Below are positions 402 through 63,710 of a stretch of DNA of 64,000 nucleotides, piece after piece (the stretch's first letter is position 1; every line of letters begins with the position of its first letter). Below the pieces are notes generated by a model, which searched no databases, had not been told where the DNA came from, and was given only the letters and a program-made list of their open reading frames with translations. A program made the translations under genes and the position numbers. This stretch comes from an uncultured Thermoplasmatales archaeon (GTDB lineage: Archaea > Thermoplasmatota > E2 > UBA202 > DSCA01): positions 38,784 to 102,783 of the forward strand of contig CAYPWJ010000003.1 in assembly GCA_964414415.1 (NCBI GenBank). The letters run 5' to 3'.

Positions 402-1340
402 ATGAAAATACTGGTGACGGACCCGGTTGCAGATGAAGCCATGGATATGCTCCGGGAACAACACGAGGTGGCGTTCAACGAGCTCACCGGCACCGAGCTC
501 GCAGCTGAAATCGGTCCATATCACGGTATCATGGTCCGCAGCGGCACGCAGGTGACACGCGAGGTCGTTGAGGCCGCCGACAACCTCAGGGTCGTCGGCC
601 GTGCAGGTATCGGCGTCGACAACATCGACCTCGAGGCGGCCAGCGAACGCGACGTCAAGGTCGTCAACGCGCCGACCGGTGCCACGCCGTCAGTGGCGGA
701 GCTCACCATCGTCCACATGCTGGCCCTCGCACGGCATCTGCCCCGAGCAGACAGGACGATGAAAGCCGGTGAATGGGCGAAGAAACAGCTGAAGGGCACC
801 GAGCTCAAGGGCAAGACCCTCGGCCTGGTCGGCTGCGGCAACATCGGCACCCTCGTCGCGGAGTACGCGCAGGCGCTGGACATGACCGTCGTCGGCTACG
901 ACCCCTACCTCTCCCAGGAGGAGCTGGCTGAGGCCGGCATCGAGAAAAAGGACTTCGACGAGATCCTCAAGATGGCGGACTACGTGTCGCTCCACGTGCC
1001 TCACGTCGAGGCGACGCATCACATCATCGACGCCGAGGCGCTGCAGACCATGCAACGTCACGCCTGCCTGGTGAACTGCGCCCGCGGGGGCGTGGTCGAC
1101 GAGGATGCGCTGTATGAGGCGCTCGTCGACGGCGAGATCGCCGGCGCGGCGCTGGATGTCTACGAGGAGGAGCCGCCCGGGGAGACGAGGCTGGCGGAGC
1201 TGGACAACGTCGTAATGACTCCGCACCTCGGCGCCGCTACCAGAGAAGGACAGGTGCGCGCGGGAACGGTCTGCGCCGAGCAGATGCTCATGGTGCTCAA
1301 CGGCGAGACGCCTGACTTCTGGGTCAACCGGAACGAATAA
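402..1340 (+). CDS. serA: D-3-phosphoglycerate dehydrogenase / D-2-hydroxyacid dehydrogenase
   Basis: Motifs MKILVTDPV, GRAGIGVDNID, GxGxxG (VGCGNIG), NCARGGVVDE, ALDVYEEEP, TPHLGAAT. No ACT domain. Start moved to ATG 402. Confidence 0.8.
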   Translation: MKILVTDPVADEAMDMLREQHEVAFNELTGTELAAEIGPYHGIMVRSGTQVTREVVEAADNLRVVGRAGIGVDNIDLEAASERDVKVVNAPTGATPSVAELTIVHMLALARHLPRADRTMKAGEWAKKQLKGTELKGKTLGLVGCGNIGTLVAEYAQALDMTVVGYDPYLSQEELAEAGIEKKDFDEILKMADYVSLHVPHVEATHHIIDAEALQTMQRHACLVNCARGGVVDEDALYEALVDGEIAGAALDVYEEEPPGETRLAELDNVVMTPHLGAATREGQVRAGTVCAEQMLMVLNGETPDFWVNRNE

Positions 1341-1352
1341 AAAATCGGCGCG

Positions 1353-1724
1353 TCAGTCGTAGTCGTTGCTTTCCTCTGCCTCGGGAGCCACGCCTTCCTC
1401 GCTGATGTTCGTTATTATCTGCATCGGTGTAGGTATCCTGAACTTCGGCCAGAGTGACGTGTTGGTGAAGCAGGAAAACTCGGTGACGTAGTACTCGTGG
1501 TCCCGGCTGATGACGCCCTGCAGCGTGAAAAATATCTCCCGTCGTTTCTCCAGGGCGAGGTCGCCGTCTGTGATTTCGACGATGGACCCTTCGGCATTGA
1601 TGGCGTCGGATCCCTCCAGCATGACCTCGAGGTTGAAGATGCATTCAGCGACTTTTTCCTCGTCCTCCACGATGTCGCCCATGCCGATGTAGAGGCCGGG
1701 GAAGCTGGACAGCTCCTGCTCCAT
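1353..1724 (-). CDS. Hypothetical acidic protein
   Basis: Coding-like ORF with an AT-rich TATA-like element (ttaaaata) upstream at about 1751-1758. No motif recognised. Confidence 0.55.
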   Translation of the reverse strand: MEQELSSFPGLYIGMGDIVEDEEKVAECIFNLEVMLEGSDAINAEGSIVEITDGDLALEKRREIFFTLQGVISRDHEYYVTEFSCFTNTSLWPKFRIPTPMQIITNISEEGVAPEAEESNDYD

Positions 1725-1777
1725 GGAGGTAAACACGCCGCGTACATAAATATTTTAACTCCAGGCCCTTGAAGCAC

Positions 1778-2200
1778 ATGGACGTCATCTCCTCGGTCGG
1801 GCATTCAAACCGCGGCGCCGACGCGTTCATCGAGCTGCTGCAGCGACACGGCATCGAAGCGGTCGTCGACGTCCGCCGGTGGCCCCTGTCACGATGGCCG
1901 CAGTTCAACCATGATGCGCTCAGGTATCTGCTCCGGGAGAACGACGTCGGTTATGTCCACCTTGAGGCGCTGGGCGCCCGCCGCGAGCAGGGCTACACGG
2001 CGTGGATGCAAAGCGAGGCGTGGCAAGAGGCATACCGGCGGCTCGTTGACCATGCACGCCGGCAGCCCACGGCGTTCATGTGTACGGAACGCCAGCCGCA
2101 GCGGTGCCACCGTCGCTACATCGCCCGCCGCCTCGCCCGGGATGGATGGCGGGTCGTCCACCTCGTCGACAGCGGCGTGGCGCAGGCGACGCTTGGCTGA
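1778..2200 (+). CDS. DUF488 family protein
   Basis: SVGHSNR...VVDVRRWP.SR.PQFN...LG...FMCTERQPQRCHRRYIA matches the DUF488 pattern. Confidence 0.8.
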   Translation: MDVISSVGHSNRGADAFIELLQRHGIEAVVDVRRWPLSRWPQFNHDALRYLLRENDVGYVHLEALGARREQGYTAWMQSEAWQEAYRRLVDHARRQPTAFMCTERQPQRCHRRYIARRLARDGWRVVHLVDSGVAQATLG

Positions 2201-2256
2201 CAGCCGATGCCGGAACGCTTTTAAGACATCTGGCTATACCATACGGGAGGGAAACC

Positions 2257-3297
2257 ATTTTTGACGTCCTCGAAGCAGTCATCCCCTACATCAGCGGGCT
2301 GTACACCCTTCCCTGGATAGCTGTCGGCTTCGTCGGCAACCTGCTGCTCAGCCGTATCTTCGGCGAAGAACGCGTCGCGGCGACGATGAAAAAAATCGGG
2401 CTGGTGCTGCTCTTCGTGTTCATCCCCATCCTGCTGTTCAAGCTCTTCCTGAACATCGACTTCCGGGCGAAGGAACTCGACTTCGCCGTGCTCGCCCTCG
2501 CCGCCATGGCCTTCCTGTACCTGATAGCCTACCTGTACGCCAGGCGGCAGGCTCCACGGTTCACCGACGGCGGCGGCGAGCGGCTGCATTTCATGAAGAC
2601 AACCATCGTCAACCAGGGACGGAGCGCCGCCTTCTTCGGGAGCGCCATCCTGGCCATCGAGGAGCTGCGTATTCCTGCCGGTATCTATATTACTCTCCTC
2701 GGCATCTATCTGTTCGCCATCGTGCCGTATCTGCTGGCGCATCTCCACGGTCGGGAGGCCGCTGCCAGCGAGACTAAAAACCCGTTGCCTCGTTTTTTAC
2801 GTATCTTCCCCTGGTACCTGGCCGCCTTTCCCATAGCGGCGACTGTTTTCCATGCGCAGACCGGCGTTACGACCTCCACGTATGAATGGGGCGTCCTGCT
2901 GGACTTCGCTGCAGCGATAACAATCCCGGCGGCGCTGTACTACGTCGGTTCAAGTATCAAGCTGTCGGACGTGACGCCTGAAAAGCTCCGGCAGCTGTTT
3001 TTTGTCCGTGCGGGCGAGCTGGCGAAGGTTCGGATGCTCCTGCTGCTCACCTTGGTCGTCACGCCTGCCGTCGTTGCAGTGCTGTTCGGCTCGCTCTGGC
3101 TGTTGGGGCTCATTCCGGCGGCGTGGCTCGCGGTGCTGCTGCTCAACGCGGTGCTGCCCATCACGAGCACCAACATGTTCCTGGCGCCGTACGGCATCAA
3201 CGAAAAGGTGACGGCGCTGTCGGTGACGTGGTCGACGCTGTTTTCGCTGCCGCTGTTCGTCGCGCTTTATTACGTGATGGCCCTGCTGTTTGGGTAG
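2257..3297 (+). CDS. AEC (auxin efflux carrier-like) family membrane transporter; start codon uncertain, probably ATT
   Basis: About 10 hydrophobic segments and AEC-like motifs (NQGRSAAFFG, AAAITIPAALYYVG, LPITSTN...APYG, VTWSTLFSLP). GGAGG at 2246-2250 precedes the in-frame ATT at 2257. Confidence 0.7.
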   Translation: MFDVLEAVIPYISGLYTLPWIAVGFVGNLLLSRIFGEERVAATMKKIGLVLLFVFIPILLFKLFLNIDFRAKELDFAVLALAAMAFLYLIAYLYARRQAPRFTDGGGERLHFMKTTIVNQGRSAAFFGSAILAIEELRIPAGIYITLLGIYLFAIVPYLLAHLHGREAAASETKNPLPRFLRIFPWYLAAFPIAATVFHAQTGVTTSTYEWGVLLDFAAAITIPAALYYVGSSIKLSDVTPEKLRQLFFVRAGELAKVRMLLLLTLVVTPAVVAVLFGSLWLLGLIPAAWLAVLLLNAVLPITSTNMFLAPYGINEKVTALSVTWSTLFSLPLFVALYYVMALLFG

Positions 3298-4584
3298 TTA
3301 TTCCTCGACGACCCGCTGGGCTTTGCCCATGCTCCGGGGAATCGTCTCTGGCTCGACGACCTCGACCGGGATGTGGAGGTTGAGCACCGCGTAGATGTCC
3401 TCCTCTATCTGCTCCGCCAGCTCGTCGAGGTTGCCCTGGCGGTGGCGCTTCCGGGTCGGCTCGAGTTTGACCGAGAGCGTCGTCAAACCGCGCTTGTCTT
3501 TCTTGATGAGCTGGTAGTGGCCGCTGGCGCCCGGCTGCTGCATGATTATCTCCTCGAGCTGGGAGGGAAACACGATGACGCCCTTTATCTTCATCATGTC
3601 GTCGCTCCTGCCCTTGATGCGGGAGATGACTGGCAGCGTCCGGCCGCACTTGCAGGGCTCCTCGGTATATTCGGCGATGTCGCCGGTGCGGAAGCGCAGC
3701 GCCGGGAAGCCTTCCTTGGTGATGGTGGTGAACACGAGCTCTCCCTCGTTGCCCGGAGGCAGCTGTTCGCCGGTCTCGGGGTCGATGATCTCGGTGAGGA
3801 AGTGATCGGCGTTGACGTGCATGCGCTGTTCCTGGCATTCGGTGACGACGCCTGGGCCGATGATCTCCGTCAAGCCATAATGCTCGTGGGCCCGGATGCC
3901 CCATTTTCCCTCGATTTTTTTGCGCATCTCGTCGCTCCATGACTCGGCGCCGAAGAGCCCCAGCCGGAGCTGGAAGTCCTCCCGCGGGTCGTGGCCCATG
4001 TCCCGGGCGACCTCGGCCATGAACAATGAGTAGGACGGCGTGCAGGCGACGGCCGTGGCGCCGAAGTCCTTCATCAGCGTTATCTGCCGCTTGGTGTTCC
4101 CGGAGCTCGTGGGCACGACGAGAGCGCCGATGCGCTGCGCTCCTTTTTCGAAGCCATGTGCGCCGGTAAAGAGACCGTAGCCGTAGGCGTTCTGCATCAC
4201 GTCGCCGGCGCGGAGGCCGTTTGCCCACAGCGAGCGTGCCATGACCTCTGCCCAGAGGTCGACGTCCGCTGCGGTGTATGGACCGACGACGGGCTTCCCG
4301 GTGGTGCCCGACGACGCGTGTAGCTCGACGCAGTCGCCGCGGTCGACGCAGAGGAGACCGAAGGGGTAGTAGTCGCGGAGCTCGGCCTTCGTCAGGAACG
4401 GCAGCTTGGTGATGTCGTCCAGCGTTTCGATGTCGTCAGGAGCAACGTCGGCCTGCTTGAGCTTGTCGTGGTAGTGCTCGTTGGTGGTATAGCAGCGCTG
4501 CACTGTCTTCCGCAGCCGACGGAGCTGCAGCTGTTTCAACGTATCAGGCGGCATTGTTTCCTGCTCTTTGTCCCAAAAATCCAT
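3298..4584 (-). CDS. paaK: Phenylacetate-CoA ligase family acyl-CoA ligase
   Basis: Motifs HASSGTTGKP, YGYGLFTGAHG, HYGLTEIIGPG, RFRTGDI, GRSDDMMKIKGVIVFPSQ, IPRSMGKAQRV. Confidence 0.88.
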   Translation of the reverse strand: MDFWDKEQETMPPDTLKQLQLRRLRKTVQRCYTTNEHYHDKLKQADVAPDDIETLDDITKLPFLTKAELRDYYPFGLLCVDRGDCVELHASSGTTGKPVVGPYTAADVDLWAEVMARSLWANGLRAGDVMQNAYGYGLFTGAHGFEKGAQRIGALVVPTSSGNTKRQITLMKDFGATAVACTPSYSLFMAEVARDMGHDPREDFQLRLGLFGAESWSDEMRKKIEGKWGIRAHEHYGLTEIIGPGVVTECQEQRMHVNADHFLTEIIDPETGEQLPPGNEGELVFTTITKEGFPALRFRTGDIAEYTEEPCKCGRTLPVISRIKGRSDDMMKIKGVIVFPSQLEEIIMQQPGASGHYQLIKKDKRGLTTLSVKLEPTRKRHRQGNLDELAEQIEEDIYAVLNLHIPVEVVEPETIPRSMGKAQRVVEE

Positions 4585-4618
4585 GATGGTAATGCGCTGC
4601 GCTTTAAAAAATGCGTCG

Positions 4619-5152
4619 CTATCGCTGCCGACGGAGATATACCAGTCCATCCTGTTCGTTCTCGACCTCGAAGCCGAGCTTTCCGAAGAGGTGCAGCATC
4701 GCCTCGTTGTCCCGGGTGACCTCGGCGGTCAGCGTCGGGACGCCGTGTCGCTCGGCCACCCGGATGAGATGGCGGAGGAGGGCGGTGCCGACGCCGCGGT
4801 CCTGCCAGTCGTCTCTGACGACGACGGCGACTTCCGCTTCGCTGTCATGCCGCGTGTATCTCCCGACGCCCAGCGGCACCTCGCCGTGGTAGTCCATCCA
4901 TGTGGCGAGCACTGCAACGTCTCGCTCGTAGTCGTTGTCGAGATAGGTCTGGAGCTCCTCGCGGGGCATCCATGTCTTCGTGTGGAACCAGCGCCGTCGT
5001 TTGGTTTCCGGGGAGAAGGCATTGAAGAGTTCGAGCATGAGCTCCTCGTCGTTTGGCCGGATGGCTCTGAGCACGATGCGGCTGCCGTCCTGTATCCGCG
5101 CTGTCGTGCGCAGTTCCCCGGGGTCTACAGGGGAGCTCGATGTAGCGACCAT
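4619..5152 (-). CDS. GNAT N-acetyltransferase (Pat/PatZ-like GNAT domain)
   Basis: DGSRIVLRAIRPND...AEVAVVVRDDWQDRGVGTALL (acetyl-CoA motif A)...NEAMLHLFGKLGF. Confidence 0.82.
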   Translation of the reverse strand: MVATSSSPVDPGELRTTARIQDGSRIVLRAIRPNDEELMLELFNAFSPETKRRRWFHTKTWMPREELQTYLDNDYERDVAVLATWMDYHGEVPLGVGRYTRHDSEAEVAVVVRDDWQDRGVGTALLRHLIRVAERHGVPTLTAEVTRDNEAMLHLFGKLGFEVENEQDGLVYLRRQR

Positions 5153-5347
5153 CGGGATACAATACCCGGGATTATTAAAAGCTGTTTTGGCGTGAAGCCG
5201 CACTCAGAGCTCATGAAGAGGCAAGGGAGATACGGGTACACCGGATGGGAATTTTTCCGTGCTCGGTGGTTGCGTGGACGCTGTCATGTGGTGCATGGTG
5301 CGCCAACCGAAACTTTATAGGCATATATGACCTTCTATACGGGAGGA

Positions 5348-6010
5348 ATGCCGCGCGATAGACCGGGTACGGGCAACAGGCAACGGGCATTGTACCGACG
5401 GAGACAGATACACAGCCGGCTGCGTTCCAGGATGAACGGGGGGAGGCGGGCTACCACTGGCGTTGAGAAGCTTCTCAGTAATCTGCAGCTGCCGTCGAAG
5501 GTTGAAGAGGCGACTACGGAGCTGTACAGGCGGGCCGTGGAAACACATACGCTGCGCGGCCGGGATACGAAAACGCTGCTGGCCGCCGCTGCCTACGCCG
5601 CCTGCCGACAGTACGGGGTGCCGGTTACTCTCGATGAGATAGCTGAGCGGTCGGGCATCAGCAGGAAAGACGTCGGGAAAAATTTCCGGTGGCTGGCGCA
5701 TGAACTGCAACTGAAGCTTCGACCGATGTCGCCGCTGGATTATCTGGACAGGTTTTGTCAGCGGCTTGAAAGAAGCGAATGCGTCCGGTCGGCGGCCCGT
5801 CGCATTCTTGAGCAGGCTGACGAAAAAGAAATAATCAGCGGGCGTGGGGCGACCGGGATGGCCGCCGCCGCCATCTATATTGCCTCGATTCAATGCGGCG
5901 ACAAGATAACGCAGCGGGCGGTCGCCGGCGTGGCCAGGATAACGGAGGTTACGCTCCGGAATCGATATAAGGAGCTGGCAGAGCGGCTCAACCTCGACAT
6001 GGATGCCTGA
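5348..6010 (+). CDS. TFB (TFIIB) paralog with two cyclin repeats, lacking the Zn ribbon and B-reader
   Basis: AAAAYAACR, VTLDEIA, SGRG..G.AAAAIYIA and TQRAVAGVARITEVTLRNRYKEL align by eye with the full TFB at 62528-63475. TTTATA at about 5314 and GGAGG immediately before ATG 5348. Confidence 0.85.
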   Translation: MPRDRPGTGNRQRALYRRRQIHSRLRSRMNGGRRATTGVEKLLSNLQLPSKVEEATTELYRRAVETHTLRGRDTKTLLAAAAYAACRQYGVPVTLDEIAERSGISRKDVGKNFRWLAHELQLKLRPMSPLDYLDRFCQRLERSECVRSAARRILEQADEKEIISGRGATGMAAAAIYIASIQCGDKITQRAVAGVARITEVTLRNRYKELAERLNLDMDA

Positions 6011-6139
6011 GTGGATGACGTTGCAGGTGGCGCTCTTTGTAGTATGAGCTGTCGGTGTTTCGTGCCGCGGAACCCACGCTGCCGGCTATTAACAATAGTT
6101 AATTTTAAATAACCCGGTGCATTGTATAGGTGTGATACG

Positions 6140-6985
6140 ATGAAACACGCAGGCATTGGAATCGTTGCCGTCGGCGTGGCGCTGCTCATGCTGGCGGCCA
6201 TGCTCCCCGTGCAGCCCGCGTCTCCGCTTGCCGCCGCGCCGGGCGACAACACGCCGCCAAACCCGCCGGATATATCGGGACCCGGCGAGGGAAAGATATG
6301 GGAGGTCTACACCTACCAGTTCACGATTACCGACCCAGACGGCGACAAGATGGAACGCCTCGAAATCTATTTCGGCGACGACAAGGAGGAAATCCTGAAC
6401 TGCGGATGCACGCAGCCCTACTGGCCGTCGGGCACCACGATCAACGTCACCCATCGCTGGACCCAGCGCGGCGACTACACCATCAAGGCCAGGGTGCGCG
6501 ACGTCCTCGGCGAGTACAGCGACTGGGGCACGCTTCAGGTCTCCATGCCCAGGAAAGCCGCAGCGATCAACGGCCGCCCTGTATCTCCCGCGCCGGTGCA
6601 GACGGCGGCCGGGCTGAACGACACGACGCCGCCCAACGTCACCATCGTCAACCCTCGTGCGGGATACCTTCATATCGGGGGTAAACCCCTGATGGAGCTG
6701 CCGTCGTCCATGTCGACCCTGCTTCCCGGCTCGTTTCTATTCAGCAGGGGCAAGGCCCTGGTGACCGACAACGTCGACGCACCGGACGATCTACAGGTGA
6801 CGGTATATCTCGACGGCGAGCAGCGTGCGATCGCCGAATGGAGCCCCTGCAGCCGGTACCACGAATGGGGCGTCCTCGGGCGCCACGTGGGCCCAACGAC
6901 GCTCCGCGTTGCGGCAACGGACAGCAGCGGCAACGTCGGCAGCGCCGAGATGCCCGTCTGGTACGTCTGCCTCCTCCAGCAGTAG
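6140..6985 (+). CDS. Secreted protein: signal peptide, PKD-like domain and C-terminal Ig-like module
   Basis: Hydrophobic N-terminus (AVGVALLMLAAMLP), PKD-like YTY..TDPDGD...YFGD...HRW..G.YTIKARVRD, then the DTTPPNVTIVNPRAGYL module. Confidence 0.75.
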   Translation: MKHAGIGIVAVGVALLMLAAMLPVQPASPLAAAPGDNTPPNPPDISGPGEGKIWEVYTYQFTITDPDGDKMERLEIYFGDDKEEILNCGCTQPYWPSGTTINVTHRWTQRGDYTIKARVRDVLGEYSDWGTLQVSMPRKAAAINGRPVSPAPVQTAAGLNDTTPPNVTIVNPRAGYLHIGGKPLMELPSSMSTLLPGSFLFSRGKALVTDNVDAPDDLQVTVYLDGEQRAIAEWSPCSRYHEWGVLGRHVGPTTLRVAATDSSGNVGSAEMPVWYVCLLQQ

Positions 6986-6996
6986 CTTTTCCCTCT

Positions 6997-7530
6997 TTAT
7001 TTTCGCAGCGACTGCAGCACCTCGCGGTGCACATCGTAGGCCTGCTGGTCGTAGAGGACGAAGCGCACCAGCTCCAATGCGTCGTTGTCCTCCAGCCATG
7101 CAACCACGGTGGGTAGGGTCACCTCGGCAGCTTTCTCCAGCGGGTAGCCGAAGGCGCCGGTGCTCAGTGCCGGAAACGAGATACTGGCCAGACCATACTC
7201 TCGGGCGAGCTGCAGCGCGTTGCGGTAGCATGCCTCCAGCAGCTCCGCGTTCCGCTGCTGGCCGGAGTAGACGGGACCGACAGTGTGGATGACGTACCGT
7301 GCAGGCAAATTGTAGCCCAGCGTGATTTTCGCTTCCCCGGTTCGGCAGCCCTCCAGTTCTTTGCATTCCTCCCAGAGTTCCGGCCCTGCGGCGCGATGGA
7401 TGGCACCGGCGACGCCCCCGCCCGGGGCAAGCCGCTTGTTGGCGGCGTTGACCACCGCGTCTGTTTCCTGCAGCGTGATGTCGCCCACCGTGAGCTCCAG
7501 CGTCGCCTCGCCGACTGATAGTTGTTCCAT
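6997..7530 (-). CDS. Macro domain protein (O-acetyl-ADP-ribose deacetylase, YmdB-like)
   Basis: GDITLQETDAVVNAAN..L..GGGVAGAIHRAAG, VIHTVGP and SISFPALSTGAFGYP motifs. Confidence 0.9.
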   Translation of the reverse strand: MEQLSVGEATLELTVGDITLQETDAVVNAANKRLAPGGGVAGAIHRAAGPELWEECKELEGCRTGEAKITLGYNLPARYVIHTVGPVYSGQQRNAELLEACYRNALQLAREYGLASISFPALSTGAFGYPLEKAAEVTLPTVVAWLEDNDALELVRFVLYDQQAYDVHREVLQSLRK

Positions 7531-7599
7531 GGGTGAGAGCAGCAACGACCTATAAAAAAATAGTGCAGGGAAACATATCATATATCCCCTCCGTATTAC

Positions 7600-8655
7600 A
7601 TGACAATGGGCGTCGTGACAGGTGGTAACGGGCAACACGAAAGATGCCAGCTGTGCGGTGCAGCCGTCACCGATATCTCGGCTGCCCTCGGCATCTGCCG
7701 CACCTGCATAAGAGAAGCCCCCTCGGCATCACTCCCTCTCATCGACCAGGCGCACGACCGCCTACGCCGCGCCGGCGGACTGCCGATAGAGCCGCCAAAC
7801 GACGGCGGCATCCGGTGCACCGTGTGCGCCAACGAGTGCCGGATCGGGTACGGCGAGACGGGCTACTGCGGCCTCAGGGAAAACGTGCGGGACATGCTGA
7901 TAGAGCGACAGGGCATCGTCCGCACCCGTTACAGCCCGGCCCCGCATGAATGCCTGGGAGCACCGGCCTGTCACGCCGACGGCTACACGCTCGAGGTCTT
8001 CGCCTACGGCTGCACGTTTAACTGTCTGCATTGCCCGCACCCGGAGCACCGCCGCACCGACGAGGTCAAACGACTGGGGATTCCCGCGCTCCAGCAGCTG
8101 GCGCAGCAGGCGTCATGCATCCGCTTTTACGGCGGCGCACCGGAACCGCAGCTTCCCTTCCTGCTTGAAGCGACCGAGCGCATTCTGGAGCGGGGAGAAG
8201 CACGCATCTGCTGGGAGCTCAACGGCAGCGCTGCCCCGGACCTGACGAGACGGGCTGCACGACACGCCGCCGCATCGGGAGGCATCGCCACCATGAGAAT
8301 CATGGCGCGCGACCCGATGCTCCACCGGACGCTGACAGGGCGGGACAACCGGCGTACCCTCGCCGCCTTCAAGATGCTCGCCGACGACTTTGATGCAGCG
8401 ACGCTGGCGGCAGCAACGATGCTCGTTCCCGACTACATCGACGCAGATGAGGTGGCTGCCATCGCCTCGTTTATCGCATCGTGCAACCCGGATATTCCCT
8501 ATATGCTGCTCCCTCCGCAGCCTGACAGCGCCGCTGTTGCCCTCCCGCCATCGAGCGACGAGCAGGTCGAGGCCTGCCGCGCTGCGGCGGCAAAATATTT
8601 AAACCGCGTGCACATTTGCAGCCTGGCATCTGCAGGGGTAAACAACCCTTTGTAG
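7600..8655 (+). CDS. Radical SAM protein (PFL-activase-like / AmmeMemoRadiSam-related)
   Basis: CxxxCxxC (CTFNCLHC), N-terminal Cys clusters CQLC, CRTC and CTVCANEC..G..GYCGLR, plus FYGGAPEPQ. Confidence 0.75.
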   Translation: MTMGVVTGGNGQHERCQLCGAAVTDISAALGICRTCIREAPSASLPLIDQAHDRLRRAGGLPIEPPNDGGIRCTVCANECRIGYGETGYCGLRENVRDMLIERQGIVRTRYSPAPHECLGAPACHADGYTLEVFAYGCTFNCLHCPHPEHRRTDEVKRLGIPALQQLAQQASCIRFYGGAPEPQLPFLLEATERILERGEARICWELNGSAAPDLTRRAARHAAASGGIATMRIMARDPMLHRTLTGRDNRRTLAAFKMLADDFDAATLAAATMLVPDYIDADEVAAIASFIASCNPDIPYMLLPPQPDSAAVALPPSSDEQVEACRAAAAKYLNRVHICSLASAGVNNPL

Positions 8656-8678
8656 ACGGCGGATGCGAGACCCCTATC

Positions 8679-8731
8679 TTTATATACATGATTGTATATT
8701 TGGGTAAAAGTTTCCCCCTATCAGGTGAACA
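8679..8731 (+). promoter_or_regulatory. TATA-like box (TTTATATA) and GGTGA RBS upstream of the ribosomal protein cluster
   Basis: tttatata at about 8679-8686; aggtgaaca immediately before the rpl3 ATG. Confidence 0.5.
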
Positions 8732-9709
8732 ATGCCAGAAAAACATCATCCGAGACGAGGTTCACACGGCTATTCGCCACGCAAGCGCGCCCAGTCCGAA
8801 GTAGCCCGCATTCATTCCTGGCCGGAGGGCGGCAGCGAGCCGCGACTGCAGGGCTTCGCCGGCTACAAGGCAGGCATGACGCACGTGCTGCTGGTTGACT
8901 ATCGGCCGACGTCGACGACCTCGGGCCGGGAGGTTCAGGTCCCCGTTACGGTCGTCGAGGTACCGCCGCTCAAGGTAGCAGCGGTGCGCCTCTACCGCGA
9001 CACCCCCTACGGTCTCAAAACCGTGACGGAACAATGGGCGGACAACCTCGACGAACTCGATGATACGATACCTGCACAGGAAAACGGCGGCAGCCTTGAA
9101 GCCGACGACATCGACGATGTCCGCGTCATCGCCCACACCATGCCCCGGCTGGTCAGCGGCATACCGAAAAAGACGCCCGAGCTCATGGAACTCCGCGTGG
9201 GCGGCGGCGACGTCGACGCCCGCCTGGAGCAGGCGAAAGCGACCCTCGGCAGCGAGGTCAGCCCTGCCGACGTCTACGGCGAGGGTACCATGGTTGACGT
9301 CGCAGCGATAACCAAGGGAAAAGGATTCCAGGGTTCACCAAAGCGATTCGGCGTCAAGCTGCTCACCCACAAAAACCGGAAACACCGGCGGCAGGCCGGC
9401 ACTTTGGGCCCCTGGCTGACATGGGTCCGCTCCACGGTGCCGCAGGCGGGACAGATGGGCTACCATCCGCGCGTCGAATACAACAAACGCATCCTCAAGA
9501 TCGGCGAGGACGGCGACGACATCACCCCCGATGGAGGTTTCAAGCACTACGGCGTCGTCCGCAACAATTACCTCATCATGCACGGGTCCGTTCCGGGCCC
9601 GGCGAAGCGCCTCATTCGTATGCGAGACGCCATCCGCTACCAGAAGGGCGTCGAAGTCGAAAAACCAGAAATTACCTACATATCGACCACCAGCAAACAG
9701 GGGATATAA
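8732..9709 (+). CDS. rpl3: 50S ribosomal protein uL3
   Basis: HHPRRGSHGYSPRKRA, FAGYKAGMTH, TKGKGFQG, GQMGYHPRVEYNK. Confidence 0.97.
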   Translation: MPEKHHPRRGSHGYSPRKRAQSEVARIHSWPEGGSEPRLQGFAGYKAGMTHVLLVDYRPTSTTSGREVQVPVTVVEVPPLKVAAVRLYRDTPYGLKTVTEQWADNLDELDDTIPAQENGGSLEADDIDDVRVIAHTMPRLVSGIPKKTPELMELRVGGGDVDARLEQAKATLGSEVSPADVYGEGTMVDVAAITKGKGFQGSPKRFGVKLLTHKNRKHRRQAGTLGPWLTWVRSTVPQAGQMGYHPRVEYNKRILKIGEDGDDITPDGGFKHYGVVRNNYLIMHGSVPGPAKRLIRMRDAIRYQKGVEVEKPEITYISTTSKQGI

Positions 9710-10470
9710 TGAAGGCAAAGGTATATGGGCTCGACGGCAGCGTCACCGACGAACGATCTCTGCCTGCAGCATTCGAGCAGGGGTTTCGCCCCGACGTCAT
9801 CCGCAAGGCGTTCAACGCGATGCGCGCCAACGCACGCCAGCCCTACGGCGTCGACGAGCGAGCCGGCAAACGCCACCCCGTTGAGCCCTGGTCTCCCGGG
9901 CGCGGCGTCTCCCGTGTCCCCCGCCTCAGCCAGGGCCGCCGCGCCGCGTTTATGCCCGGTACCGTCGGCGGTCGAGCGGCGCATCCCCCTAAACCGGAAA
10001 AAGACTGGGGGAAAAAGATCAACAAGAAAGAGAAGGCACTCGCTCGCCGGGCGGCACTCGCGGCCACCGCCAGCCCTGAACTGGTTGCAGGGCGCGGTCA
10101 CCGCTTCGGCGAGGACGTCACGCTGCCACTCGTTGTCGACGACGCGTTCGAGCGACTCGCAAAAACTAATGACATGATCCAGGCGCTGCAAAAGCTCGGC
10201 GTCTACGGCGACGTTGAACGTGCCAGGCAGGGACGGCACATCAGGGCCGGGAAGGGAAAGCGACGCGGTCGTAAGTACCGGACGCCTCGCTCCCTGCTCA
10301 TCGTGGCCGGTGACACGGAAAACGTTAAAAAAGCCGCCGGTAATTTAACAGGAGTGGACGTCGTGACGCCACAGGAAGTCAACGTACTGCATCTCGCCCC
10401 CGGGGGAGACCCGGGTAGGCTTGCCGTCTTTACCGTCAACGCGTTAGAGCAGATGGAGGACCGGCAATGA
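9709..10470 (+). CDS. rpl4: 50S ribosomal protein uL4
   Basis: Starts at ATG 9709 overlapping the rpl3 stop; FRPDVIRKA, GRGVSRVPR, RAGKGKRRGRKY, LAPGGDPGRL. Confidence 0.96.
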   Translation: MKAKVYGLDGSVTDERSLPAAFEQGFRPDVIRKAFNAMRANARQPYGVDERAGKRHPVEPWSPGRGVSRVPRLSQGRRAAFMPGTVGGRAAHPPKPEKDWGKKINKKEKALARRAALAATASPELVAGRGHRFGEDVTLPLVVDDAFERLAKTNDMIQALQKLGVYGDVERARQGRHIRAGKGKRRGRKYRTPRSLLIVAGDTENVKKAAGNLTGVDVVTPQEVNVLHLAPGGDPGRLAVFTVNALEQMEDRQ

Positions 10471-10724
10471 ACCCGTATGACATCATCCAGCATCCCTATG
10501 TCACCGAAAAATCGATGCTCATGATGGAGGACAACAACGCATTACAGTTTGCGGTCAAAATGGAAGCAAACAAGAAAGAAGTCAAAAGCGCCGTCGAGCA
10601 GATGTTCGACGTCGAGGTAGCGAAGGTCACGACCCGCATCGCGAAGGAAGGAAAGCTGGCCGTCGTGACGCTCACGCCTGAATACGAGGCGGAAGACATC
10701 GCCATGAGACTAGGTATCTTCTAA
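10467..10724 (+). CDS. rpl23: 50S ribosomal protein uL23
   Basis: IIQHPYVTEKS...ANKKEVKSAVEQMFDVEVAKV; operon position. Confidence 0.95.
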   Translation: MNPYDIIQHPYVTEKSMLMMEDNNALQFAVKMEANKKEVKSAVEQMFDVEVAKVTTRIAKEGKLAVVTLTPEYEAEDIAMRLGIF

Positions 10725-10732
10725 GTGATATA

Positions 10733-11434
10733 ATGGGAAAGCGATTGGTACATCAACGGAGAGGCTCCGCACGCTCCCGCTACCGGAGTCCATCGTTCAA
10801 GCACAAAGGCCCGATAGCCTATCCCTCGCTGGAGGAAACCGAGGGCGTCGTGCGGGACATCGTTCACAACCCGGGCACGTCGTCCCCGCTGGCCGTCGTG
10901 GAGACCAGAGACGGCAGCAGATTCACCATGCTTGCCCCCGAGGGTATTGCATCGGGCGAGACTGTTCGATTTACTGAGAGAAGCATCCTGAAACCCGGCA
11001 ACGTGCTGCCGCTGTCCTCGATACCGGAGGGAACACCTGTCTACAACATCGAGAGCAACCCGGGCGACGGCGGTACGTTTGCCCGCTCAGGCGGCAACCA
11101 TGGCACCGTTGTGGGGCACGGAGAACACGTCATCGTGAAGCTCCCGTCCGGTGCACAGAAAAAATTGCATCCTCGATGCCGGGCTACCGTCGGCGTTGCT
11201 GCCGGTGGCGGCCGGAACGAAAAACCGTTCATGAAGGCCGGCAAGCGGCATCACGCGCTTCGCTCCCGCGGCGGCATCTATCCACGGGTGCGCGGCGTGG
11301 CGATGAATCCCGTCGACCATCCACACGGTGGCGGCGCCCATCAGCACGTGGGCAAGTCGTCGACCGTCGGCCGGAATGCGCCTCCGGGACGGAAGGCGGG
11401 CAGCATAGCGGCACGGAGGACCGGGAAGAAGTGA
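10733..11434 (+). CDS. rpl2: 50S ribosomal protein uL2
   Basis: MGKRLVHQRRG, RVRGVAMNPVDHPHGGG. Confidence 0.97.
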   Translation: MGKRLVHQRRGSARSRYRSPSFKHKGPIAYPSLEETEGVVRDIVHNPGTSSPLAVVETRDGSRFTMLAPEGIASGETVRFTERSILKPGNVLPLSSIPEGTPVYNIESNPGDGGTFARSGGNHGTVVGHGEHVIVKLPSGAQKKLHPRCRATVGVAAGGGRNEKPFMKAGKRHHALRSRGGIYPRVRGVAMNPVDHPHGGGAHQHVGKSSTVGRNAPPGRKAGSIAARRTGKK

Positions 11435-62527: not shown

Positions 62528-63475
62528 TTACATGTGCCCCGGGAGGTCGAGGTCGAGGTGTTCCACCATCTCCTTATAGCGGTTCCTGATGGTCACCTCG
62601 GTGACACCTGCGACGGTGGCGACGTCGCTCTGCGTCCTGCTTTCTCCCCCCTGAAGCGAGGTGATGTAGATGATTGCCGCCGCTATCCCGGTGGGTCCCC
62701 GCCCGCTCGTCAGACCCTGCTCCTTCGTCCGTCGGAGGATGTCCAGGGCGTTGCGTTCGGTGTCCTCATGCAGGTCGAGCTTCCTGCAAAAACGAGACAG
62801 GTAGTCCTGCGGCTGGAGCGGAATGAGCTTCAGCTTCAGTTCCCGGGAGAGAAAACGAAATGTTTTCCCGATCTCCTTCCTGTCCACCCCGGCGGACTCC
62901 GCCACTTCTTCCAGGGTGCGGGGGGCACCGCATTGGCGGCAGGCGGCATACAGGGCAGCAGCGGTGACCGCCTCCACGCTTCGCCCCCGTATCAGTCGTT
63001 GCTCCACCGCGCTCCGGTACAACGCGGCGGTTGCCTCCCGCACCTGCCGGGGTAATTCCATGCTCGAGGAAATCCTGTCCAGGCGGGAGAGCGCAAAGGA
63101 CATGTCGCCCCGGGACGTTTTTCCTCTGCCGACGCGCTGCTGCCATTTCCGCAGCCGGTATACCCCCGGGCGGTTGCGTGCTGGAATCGATTTTCCATAG
63201 CTGTCTGTGTTCTTCCAGTCGATAACGGTGGGGAGGTCCGAGGGATGCCGCACCGGCCCGCCGGTTCGAGCGACTTTTTTTTGTTCCTCCTGGTCGAAGG
63301 CACGCCATTCCGGTCCCTGGTCTATATATTTGTCCTCGATGACCAATCCACATTGTCTGCATACAAGTTCCCCGCGCTCATAGTCACGGGCGATGCGGGC
63401 TGAGCCGCACTCCGGGCATTGTGTAATCTCTTCCTGCTTTACCCTGTTATTCTTTGACATTATCTTCTTTGACAT
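62528..63475 (-). CDS. tfb: Transcription initiation factor IIB (full-length TFB)
   Basis: Zn ribbon CPECG...GELVCRQCG, GPEWRAF B-reader, YRLRKWQ linker, two cyclin repeats, VTEVTIRNRYKE. Confidence 0.95.
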   Translation of the reverse strand: MSKKIMSKNNRVKQEEITQCPECGSARIARDYERGELVCRQCGLVIEDKYIDQGPEWRAFDQEEQKKVARTGGPVRHPSDLPTVIDWKNTDSYGKSIPARNRPGVYRLRKWQQRVGRGKTSRGDMSFALSRLDRISSSMELPRQVREATAALYRSAVEQRLIRGRSVEAVTAAALYAACRQCGAPRTLEEVAESAGVDRKEIGKTFRFLSRELKLKLIPLQPQDYLSRFCRKLDLHEDTERNALDILRRTKEQGLTSGRGPTGIAAAIIYITSLQGGESRTQSDVATVAGVTEVTIRNRYKEMVEHLDLDLPGHM

Positions 63476-63480
63476 TATCT
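63451..63480. repeat. Perfect 15-bp tandem duplication spanning the tfb start codon
   Basis: tctttgacattatct twice (63451-63465 and 63466-63480), giving MSKKI-MSKNN. Confidence 0.85.
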
Positions 63481-63710
63481 ATCCTTTGCCCCCGGAAAAG
63501 GTCTATACCGCCGGTTGTATAAAGCTTTATGGGGCACGGGCACCGGGCGGCCGCGGTCTCGTTTATCCCCGGGATAGACGATATAGCTTTGGATAGCTTC
63601 AGGTGCGGTGGAGGGGGTATAGAGATACGGCAAAAAACAGAGAAAAAAGGGAAAAGGGCAGGCGGGTCCTGCATACGGGGAACGACCCCGTCGGTTGAGA
63701 CGTACGTCGA

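Follow-up and report, generated by a model that had tools for sequence, protein, structure and literature searches.

In the 64-kb stretch of DNA analysed here (the window hereafter; contig CAYPWJ010000003.1 of an uncultured Thermoplasmatales archaeon), we identified a paralog of the archaeal general transcription factor TFB that retains the complete promoter-binding core, yet lacks the N-terminal zinc ribbon and the B-reader. The gene of this 220-residue protein, referred to as short TFB in the following, is a genuine, conserved gene under purifying selection, rather than a product of decay or misassembly. As to its function, we assign a probability of about one half to the reading that short TFB is a promoter-occupying attenuator or repressor, that is, a built-in dominant-negative competitor of the full-length TFB encoded in the same window. 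The gene and its promoter, including the putative TFB recognition element (BRE), comprise the following features (aa, amino acids; AF2, AlphaFold2):

5307-5312, plus strand: BRE-like element CCGAAA, directly before the TATA box; CC(G/C)AAA stands at the same position in 8/8 orthologous loci.
5314-5319, plus strand: TATA box TTTATA; in 8/8 loci, (C/G)TTATAA or CTTTATA recurs here at constant spacing to the ATG.
5348-6010, plus strand: coding sequence of the ribbon-less TFB paralog, 220 aa plus stop, with its ATG at 5348.
5348-5443, plus strand: basic N-terminal tail (residues 1-32), in which the B-linker/pre-core region survives as a degenerate remnant with the motif LYRRRxIHRRLRS.
5444-5704, plus strand: first cyclin repeat, residues 33-119; five AF2 helices, alignment to 1AIS_B, with the RGR loop, YAACRQ and a clade-specific FRW replacing YRF.
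5732-5986, plus strand: second cyclin repeat, residues 129-213; AF2 helices, the best PF00382 stretch being residues 126-212.
5912-5986, plus strand: helix-turn-helix (HTH) BH4'-BH5', the BRE-recognition unit, containing TEVTxRNRYKEL.

The original prediction of a 220-aa open reading frame (ORF) with both cyclin repeats and no zinc ribbon is borne out by Pfam, which detects two TFIIB repeats (PF00382, E-value 1.7e-39, in two stretches) and returns no match to the ribbon family PF08271 (Zn_Ribbon_TF). The C-terminal HTH, said to be intact, was indeed found as TQRAVAGVARITEVTLRNRYKEL at residues 188-210. By BLASTP, short TFB shares 47% identity with the stretch 93-311 of the window's full-length TFB; it thus begins at about TFB residue 93, within the link between the B-reader and the first cyclin repeat, and the B-reader (GPEWRAF ... 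RTGxP) is absent in the alignment. The NCBIfam profile NF001658 is matched at positions 99-310 only, with 228.6 bits against a cut-off of 384 that the full-length TFB exceeds (433.9 bits). That the B-linker helix would be covered as well holds only in part: its C-terminal portion is kept (LYRRRxIHRRLRS versus LYRLRKWQRRIRVS), but it is degenerate, with the KWQ and ERN motifs lost, and the helix that AlphaFold places at residues 9-28 of the tail is of low confidence (predicted local distance difference test, pLDDT, 50-57). By its repeats, its HTH and its fold, short TFB clearly falls within the TFB/TFIIB superfamily, yet it is not a complete TFB.

This fold resembles that of the TFB core (TFBc) bound to DNA and the TATA-binding protein (TBP). 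Short TFB matches the Pyrococcus woesei TFB core (1AIS_B/1D3U_B) with an E-value of 9e-45, residues 37-217 aligning against 14-196, so that the two are nearly co-extensive. Its AlphaFold2 model (mean pLDDT 82) has ten helices in two repeats, and Foldseek returned 1D3U_B and 1AIS_B as top matches (E-value 2.6e-13), the former with a root-mean-square deviation of 1.5 Å over 189 columns and TM-scores of 0.80/0.87. The other top structural matches were TFIIB in Pol II pre-initiation complexes.

Short TFB and its orthologs (the short clade) were further compared, residue by residue, with a set of 102 full-length TFBs, in which conservation reaches 80% or more at 134 columns; the short clade retains 77 of these. 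The motifs that we take to face DNA or TBP, from what is established for 1AIS, 1D3U and 1VOL, are invariant or nearly so across the clade and do not differ from those of canonical TFBs. They comprise the RGR loop, YAACRQ, an R/K-K pair preceding IGR/VGK, and the recognition helix TEVTxRNRYKEL. Apart from its variable position and one K-to-Q variant, TEVTxRNRYKEL is invariant in the clade. The recognition helix of short TFB, TEVTLRNRYKEL, has the pattern of canonical TFBs and is identical to that of the window's full-length TFB, for which reason both proteins should, as predicted from their sequences, read the same BRE. On the other hand, certain changes are specific to the clade. IGRxYRF is replaced by VGKxFRW, a fixed change that places W115 of short TFB in alignment with F192 of the P. 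furiosus TFB (PfuTFB), a residue that contacts template-strand DNA at -19 (PMC6212726). Besides, KRTQ at the start of the HTH has become KITQ, KxLIRGRS has become THTxRGRD, and PRT has become P(L/F/V)T.

The truncation is a family trait. Beyond short TFB itself, a protein homology search covering 5.8 billion proteins yielded nine further clusters (P0002-P0010) of 200-221 aa and 63-79% identity, after which matches fall abruptly to full-length TFBs at 54% identity or less. Among 1.84 billion representatives at 50% identity, the short clade corresponds to a single one (408 bits), the next match scoring 256 bits. All ten clusters share the truncation point, and every full-length member begins at the same place, with a short, variable head (MSxxxxxxGG) and then RxRxLYRRRxIHRRLRSK, the aligned counterpart of RNRxxLYRLRKWQRRIRVS in full-length TFBs. 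Full-length orthologs had been named as the outcome that would speak against a headless paralog; instead, nine of nine related clusters share the truncation, and eight loci share the promoter. Truncated orthologs with a dN/dS ratio (ω) below 1, proposed as a check, were found likewise: pairwise Nei-Gojobori estimates on the DNA of eight short-clade members range from 0.07 to 0.33 at dS of at least 0.5, with ω values of 0.16 and 0.13 for the least saturated pairs (window-P0002, dS 0.73; P0008-P0005, dS 0.69). Pooled by region, ω amounts to 0.17 in each cyclin repeat and 0.29 in the basic tail, where all members carry 9-13 lysine or arginine residues among the first 34 (12 in the window protein).

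Public databases annotate the orthologs as 'transcription initiation factor IIB', and the clade is narrow. Single-protein pattern scans of genome contigs gave no match to it, and an alignment-based scan of the same kind of contigs, dominated by the generic pattern VTxRNRYKE, returned, among the matches listed, only full-length TFBs at up to 57% identity. With the clade-specific pattern GKxFRWL, a metagenome scan gave 95 matches, one of which is real (L118, P0006-like). No short-clade member was present among the 23 TFB loci (identity up to 43%) found in IMG/VR, where all 22 complete ones are full-length with two CxxC motifs, the remaining one (L112) being cut by the contig start. In INPHARED, tblastn found no short-clade member either; the sole match was the TFB of Sulfolobales virus YNP1 at 29% identity. 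Four short matches (P0018, P0030, P0077 and P0112) were considered as further members and rejected: all four clusters contain many different lengths, P0030 and P0112 fall into 90% clusters together with full-length members, and the four are most likely fragments or miscalled starts.

The locus itself is intact. Upstream of short TFB, the intergenic region is bordered by a gene on the opposite strand:

4619-5203 (alternative end 5152), minus strand: divergent GNAT acetyltransferase (Pfam PF00583, E-value 8.5e-15).

Since this gene sits upstream, there is no space for a missing 5' piece of short TFB, and a hidden Markov model (HMM) of TFB N-termini found no ribbon there; the earlier judgement that this is not a frameshifted full gene therefore stands. 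The same GNAT arrangement was seen in L081, L082 and L118. Misassembly is excluded by the agreement of three more public assemblies (L085-L087), which hold an identical short TFB gene, with an independent Logan metagenome contig (run X2), which covers 4600-6300 with 0 differences. The Logan contigs of runs X1 and X3 break at window positions 5062-5091, with a 30-nt overlap within the GNAT gene, where the X2 contig is continuous; these breaks probably reflect strain variation in the sediment population and not a structural difference.

Short TFB had been proposed to possess its own TATA box, which can now be refined to the BRE and TATA box listed above. In the 8/8 loci examined, the shared BRE/TATA (CCGAAACTTTATA) lies ~28-35 nt 5' of the ATG, with the consensus CC(G/C)AAA(C/G)TTTATAA at a fixed distance, and most of the eight loci have in-frame stops upstream of the ATG. 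As the spacing from TATA box to start site is usually ~25 bp (PMC6212726), transcription of short TFB should start at about 5341-5344 and the mRNA is probably near-leaderless, with a leader of few nucleotides; a functional Shine-Dalgarno site is therefore unlikely. Accordingly, we do not uphold the proposed ribosome-binding site: GGGAGGA (5341-5347) abuts the ATG, is not conserved in the orthologs, and would fall into a leader that is too short by the TATA-ATG distance. As for the full-length TFB gene, the sequence preceding it (63476-63540, minus strand) holds a similar AAAGCTTTATAC promoter and a G-rich/AGGA stretch; with ~40 nt from TATA box to ATG, its mRNA would be leadered, unlike that of the short paralog.

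The conserved promoter and the ortholog starts also indicate that the true start codon of short TFB is the one at 5348, which agrees with the conserved MS... starts of the orthologs. An alternative ATG at 5327, giving a 227-aa version, lies only 8 nt past the TATA box and, given the inferred transcription start, upstream of the transcript. In the public gene call (P0001), the protein starts at M29 (5432) and has 192 aa, whereby the conserved arginine-rich tail is cut off; such a start is unlikely because Met29 is not conserved among orthologs. In the P0006 cluster, one JGI member (P0122, 246 aa) is called 26 residues too long.

The presumed counterpart of short TFB is found near the far end of the window, where a complete TFB had been reported with its strand unstated; Pfam confirms it, and on the minus strand:

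62528-63475, minus strand: canonical full-length TFB, 315 aa, with a zinc ribbon (PF08271, E-value 2.3e-21) and two TFIIB repeats.

In a tree of the core region, the short clade is monophyletic on a long stem and has the window's full-length TFB and its ortholog P0029 as sister, with the proviso that this tree was built by neighbour-joining only and that long-branch effects are possible. The full-length TFB is the likely evolutionary source of the short paralog as well as its likely competitor. Among the matches listed, its best relatives come from Thermoplasmatales/Thermoplasmata metagenome-assembled genomes (MAGs) at up to 67% identity, and the short TFB ortholog P0007 is labelled 'Thermoplasmatota archaeon'. 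The sequencing runs that contain the short TFB locus are sediment metagenomes. A gene for TBP was looked for in the 64-kb window, and none was found. Besides, a 71-aa protein from a 63-kb JGI contig (P0315) is an N-terminal TFB fragment, 80% identical to the window's full-length TFB and out of frame just after GPEWRAFD; it is either a frameshifted TFB of a close relative or an assembly error.

Synteny allowed us to compare short TFB with its neighbours. In L081 (GCA_964514975.1), the gene lies in the same order of an AMP-binding ligase, GNAT, short TFB, a PKD protein, a macro-domain protein, a radical-SAM protein and the rpl3 operon, with one additional gene between short TFB and the PKD protein. 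Across the 11 genes of window positions 402-11434, the ten neighbours show 69-95% protein identity and dN of 0.02-0.23, whereas short TFB has the lowest identity (65%) and the highest dN (0.27) at an ω of 0.24. It is hence constrained, yet evolves much faster than the neighbouring ribosomal-protein genes. Its dS in this comparison (1.13) is also above the 0.5-0.8 of the neighbours, a possible hint that part of its history was separate, for instance through recombination or transfer.

How might such a protein act? By means of its two cyclin repeats and HTH, short TFB would bind TBP and BRE/TATA as TFB does, but the resulting complex, devoid of zinc ribbon and B-reader, would be unable to recruit RNA polymerase (RNAP). 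Because this complex could not bring RNAP, short TFB would compete with the full-length TFB of the same genome, and initiation would be attenuated or repressed at the level of the general factors. We infer these steps, along with any set of promoters and conditions affected, from the protein sequence and from what is known of TFB: ribbon and linker are required for RNAP binding, and all functions towards TBP and the promoter reside in the core (PMC3025549, PMC7289017). An engineered TFB2ΔN, moreover, is able to bind promoters but not to recruit RNAP, and in Sulfolobus cells it has a dominant-negative effect (bioRxiv 10.64898/2026.09.06.749720), and it is the matching domain content that makes a promoter-occupying competitor the best-supported reading.

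Several observations weigh against it. No RNA run contained the locus, which was present in DNA sediment metagenomes only. Being of consensus strength, the promoter points to substantial expression, and this would come at a high price if short TFB were a general inhibitor without regulation. The invariant clade changes (FRW, KITQ, P(L/F/V)T) sit at or near DNA/TBP-facing positions, so that affinity or specificity may differ from that of TFB. Selection also acts on the arginine-rich tail (dN/dS 0.29), although a pure decoy would not obviously need it. Lastly, the highest dN of the 11 syntenic genes and the very narrow clade mark the role as accessory, and it might be a different one altogether.

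Comparison with known systems places short TFB between natural factors and laboratory constructs. With canonical archaeal TFBs (e.g. that of Pyrococcus, core 1AIS/1D3U), it shares the two cyclin repeats, the BRE-recognition helix, the RGR loop and YAACRQ, but it is set apart by the missing zinc ribbon and B-reader, the degenerate B-linker and the FRW, KITQ and THT substitutions. P. furiosus TFB2, an alternative TFB with a poorly conserved B-reader that still supports transcription, is likewise defective in its N-terminal region, yet it retains the zinc ribbon. Eukaryotic Orc6 is a ribbon-less protein of TFIIB fold as well, but in sequence short TFB is far closer to TFB. Its domain content is essentially that of the engineered TFBc and TFB2ΔN, with a start ~23 residues before that of the crystallised TFBc; in contrast to these constructs, it is natural, has its own promoter and a conserved arginine-rich tail, and is under selection. 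TFB3 of Sulfolobus and Thermoproteus, also a truncated paralog, modulates initiation but is unable to take the place of TFB (PMC7289017, PMC3189178). As the original prediction had pointed out, its truncation is the reverse one: TFB3 keeps the ribbon, loses one cyclin fold (the second) and activates in trans, whereas short TFB keeps the complete core. A conceptual likeness exists to TFS4 of Saccharolobus solfataricus, a general-factor paralog that kept its binding module, lost the productive part and acts as an inhibitor (PMC5715097). However, TFS4 belongs to the TFS/TFIIS family and targets the RNAP secondary channel, and its inhibition is experimentally shown. A full-text literature search returned no description of a natural N-terminally truncated TFB.

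Other functions can be envisaged for the same protein. Relying on the same retained binding determinants as a competitor, short TFB could serve as a placeholder, keeping TBP stably on promoters (poising or bookmarking, e.g. in slow-growing sediment cells) until it is swapped for the full-length TFB, with a net effect that would be neutral, positive or limited to a promoter subset. In many archaea, a stable TBP-DNA complex does need TFB (PMC7289017), and the clade changes at DNA-facing residues could confer subset specificity; yet nothing we saw points to such an exchange or to specificity, canonical TFB has the very same recognition helix, and the engineered ΔN protein is inhibitory in vivo (bioRxiv 10.64898/2026.09.06.749720), all of which makes a placeholder rather unlikely. 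A separate ribbon/reader protein that joins the core in trans, turning the pair into an alternative initiation factor, was part of the original prediction and has a precedent in Sulfolobus TFB3, a ribbon-bearing fragment acting in trans on the TFB complex (PMC7289017). We tend to dismiss such a split TFB as quite improbable: we see no interaction module on short TFB, and an HMM built from the N-termini of ~100 full-length TFBs, scanned against all six frames, recovered only the full-length TFB in the 64-kb window (E-value 4.7e-35; next best 1.5). Nor did a ribbon/reader ORF appear in the sequence around eight short-clade and three unrelated ribbon-less TFB loci, the rest of these genomes lying outside the search. 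Querying the databases with the N-terminal 92 aa of the full-length TFB retrieved only contig-end fragments and frameshifted TFBs. Still more improbable is a role of this TFIIB-fold DNA-binding protein in a process other than transcription, for instance in an Orc6-like manner at replication origins. One ortholog does lie 3.5 kb from an MCM-like gene, and residues 42-122 match Pfam ORC6 (PF05460; E-value 3.6e-4), though weakly and below the cut-off (21.2 versus 22.2 bits); the best structural matches are all TFB/TFIIB, and the strict conservation of the BRE-recognition helix and the TBP-facing motifs points to promoter binding. That short TFB might be a functionless, still-decaying remnant of a duplicated TFB would fit the fastest-evolving gene of the syntenic block and its narrow distribution, but intact ORFs with the same ends in ten clusters, the low dN/dS values and the conserved promoter largely refute this view, which we now find hard to credit.

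A further alternative shares its mechanism with the competitor reading and differs in the biological role: short TFB could be a factor of genetic conflict, linked to mobile elements or islands, and serve host take-over, exclusion or defence by stopping TBP/TFB-dependent initiation. The high dN of the window copy would suit such a role, as would one subclade (P0005/P0007/P0008, starting with 'MSNSKE...') that lies outside the syntenic locus. The P0007 gene (L088 2832-3488; GCA_049975285.1) is embedded in a region (L088 1-10055) of low GC content (0.48) with small ORFs that lack Pfam families; this region also encodes a helicase of 625 aa that combines an MCM P-loop with a C-terminal winged helix and has a match in viral PHROGs (phrog_18685, E-value 6e-40), and it looks like an integrated element or plasmid. 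P0008 (L083 8001-8660; GCA_905333555.1, contig CAJOUV010000051.1), 67% identical to the window's short TFB, is preceded by an MBL-fold hydrolase and surrounded by small ORFs, at a contig end with a GC content of 0.48-0.58 versus 0.67 further in. The same MAG also carries the window locus (L085), so it may hold two ribbon-less TFB paralogs in one genome, one of them on island-like DNA, or else be a chimeric bin, which would weaken the argument. The window copy, however, is chromosomal, of native GC content and syntenic across genomes with its well-conserved neighbours. Neither integrase, tRNA nor other signs of integration were seen near L083, L088 or L081, no member turned up in viral databases (IMG/VR and INPHARED), and PADLOC gave nothing significant for short TFB and its neighbours. 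On balance, we consider a conflict factor unlikely.

Short TFB may not be the only protein of its kind. Among the 149 best representatives, 46 are without a TFB-type ribbon/reader, and about two dozen of these are complete-core proteins of up to 245 aa that start with Met, while the remaining short representatives certainly include fragments. Two complete ORFs encode ribbon-less cores unrelated to the short clade: P0207 (224 aa; L213 4001-4675, GCA_025464205.1) directly follows a Gar1-like gene near RadA and primase, and P0293 (239 aa; L215 4001-4720, GCA_038881895.1, on a 438-kb contig) lies 4 kb from TFE-alpha; no TFB ribbon/reader was found within 4 kb of either. In the NCBIfam profile, the match starts at position 98 for P0207, 107 for P0293 and 93 for P0170, compared with 99 for the window's short TFB. 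By this census, TFB cores that lack the ribbon or carry a different N-terminal domain seem to occur here and there in several archaeal lineages, under the plain annotation 'transcription initiation factor IIB'. Tentatively, and with less confidence than we place in the competitor reading itself, we propose that ribbon-less TFBs could form a recurrent, undescribed class of archaeal anti-initiation factors, which would occupy TBP-BRE/TATA without recruiting RNAP and thereby throttle transcription globally or selectively (e.g. in sediment dormancy or mobile-element conflict); the Thermoplasmatota clade would be one example, with independent ones elsewhere and some copies on element-like DNA.

Other rearranged TFBs came to light as well. 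Cores fused to other N-terminal modules, such as an AbrB/SpoVT-like segment (P0190) or a long Zn-finger/HTH region (P0164), suggest modular reuse of the TFB core; P0185/P0182/P0189 and P0168/P0226/P0229 are listed with them, in a set that includes divergent CxxC...CxxC ribbons missed by the TFB-ribbon HMM. The putative TFB of Sulfolobales virus YNP1 (L117 2198-3202; KP282679.1 35401-36405; 334 aa) lacks CxxC pairs where the N-terminal ribbon would be and begins with ...IFDPERGEYV, but it keeps a B-reader (GPEWRAY) and both cyclin repeats and carries a C-terminal CPRCGH motif; it is a different kind of ribbon loss. The viral-classed IMG/VR contigs (L094-L116; 6-144 kb, about half of them 90-144 kb) encode full-length TFBs with zinc ribbons, 31-43% identical to short TFB, and two of these genes (L107 and L114) lie on one 136-kb contig. 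These contigs may stem from large archaeal viruses with their own TFB or be mislabelled host DNA.

Regulation in archaea is mostly explained by repressors and activators of bacterial type, together with the swapping of full TFB and TBP paralogs. If short TFB is indeed a natural competitor of TFB, it would stand for a different principle, namely competition at the level of the general factors; the protein would then mirror TFB3 and, in concept, be akin to TFS4. Being small and matching the TFBc construct that has already been crystallised with TBP and DNA, short TFB renders this idea directly testable.

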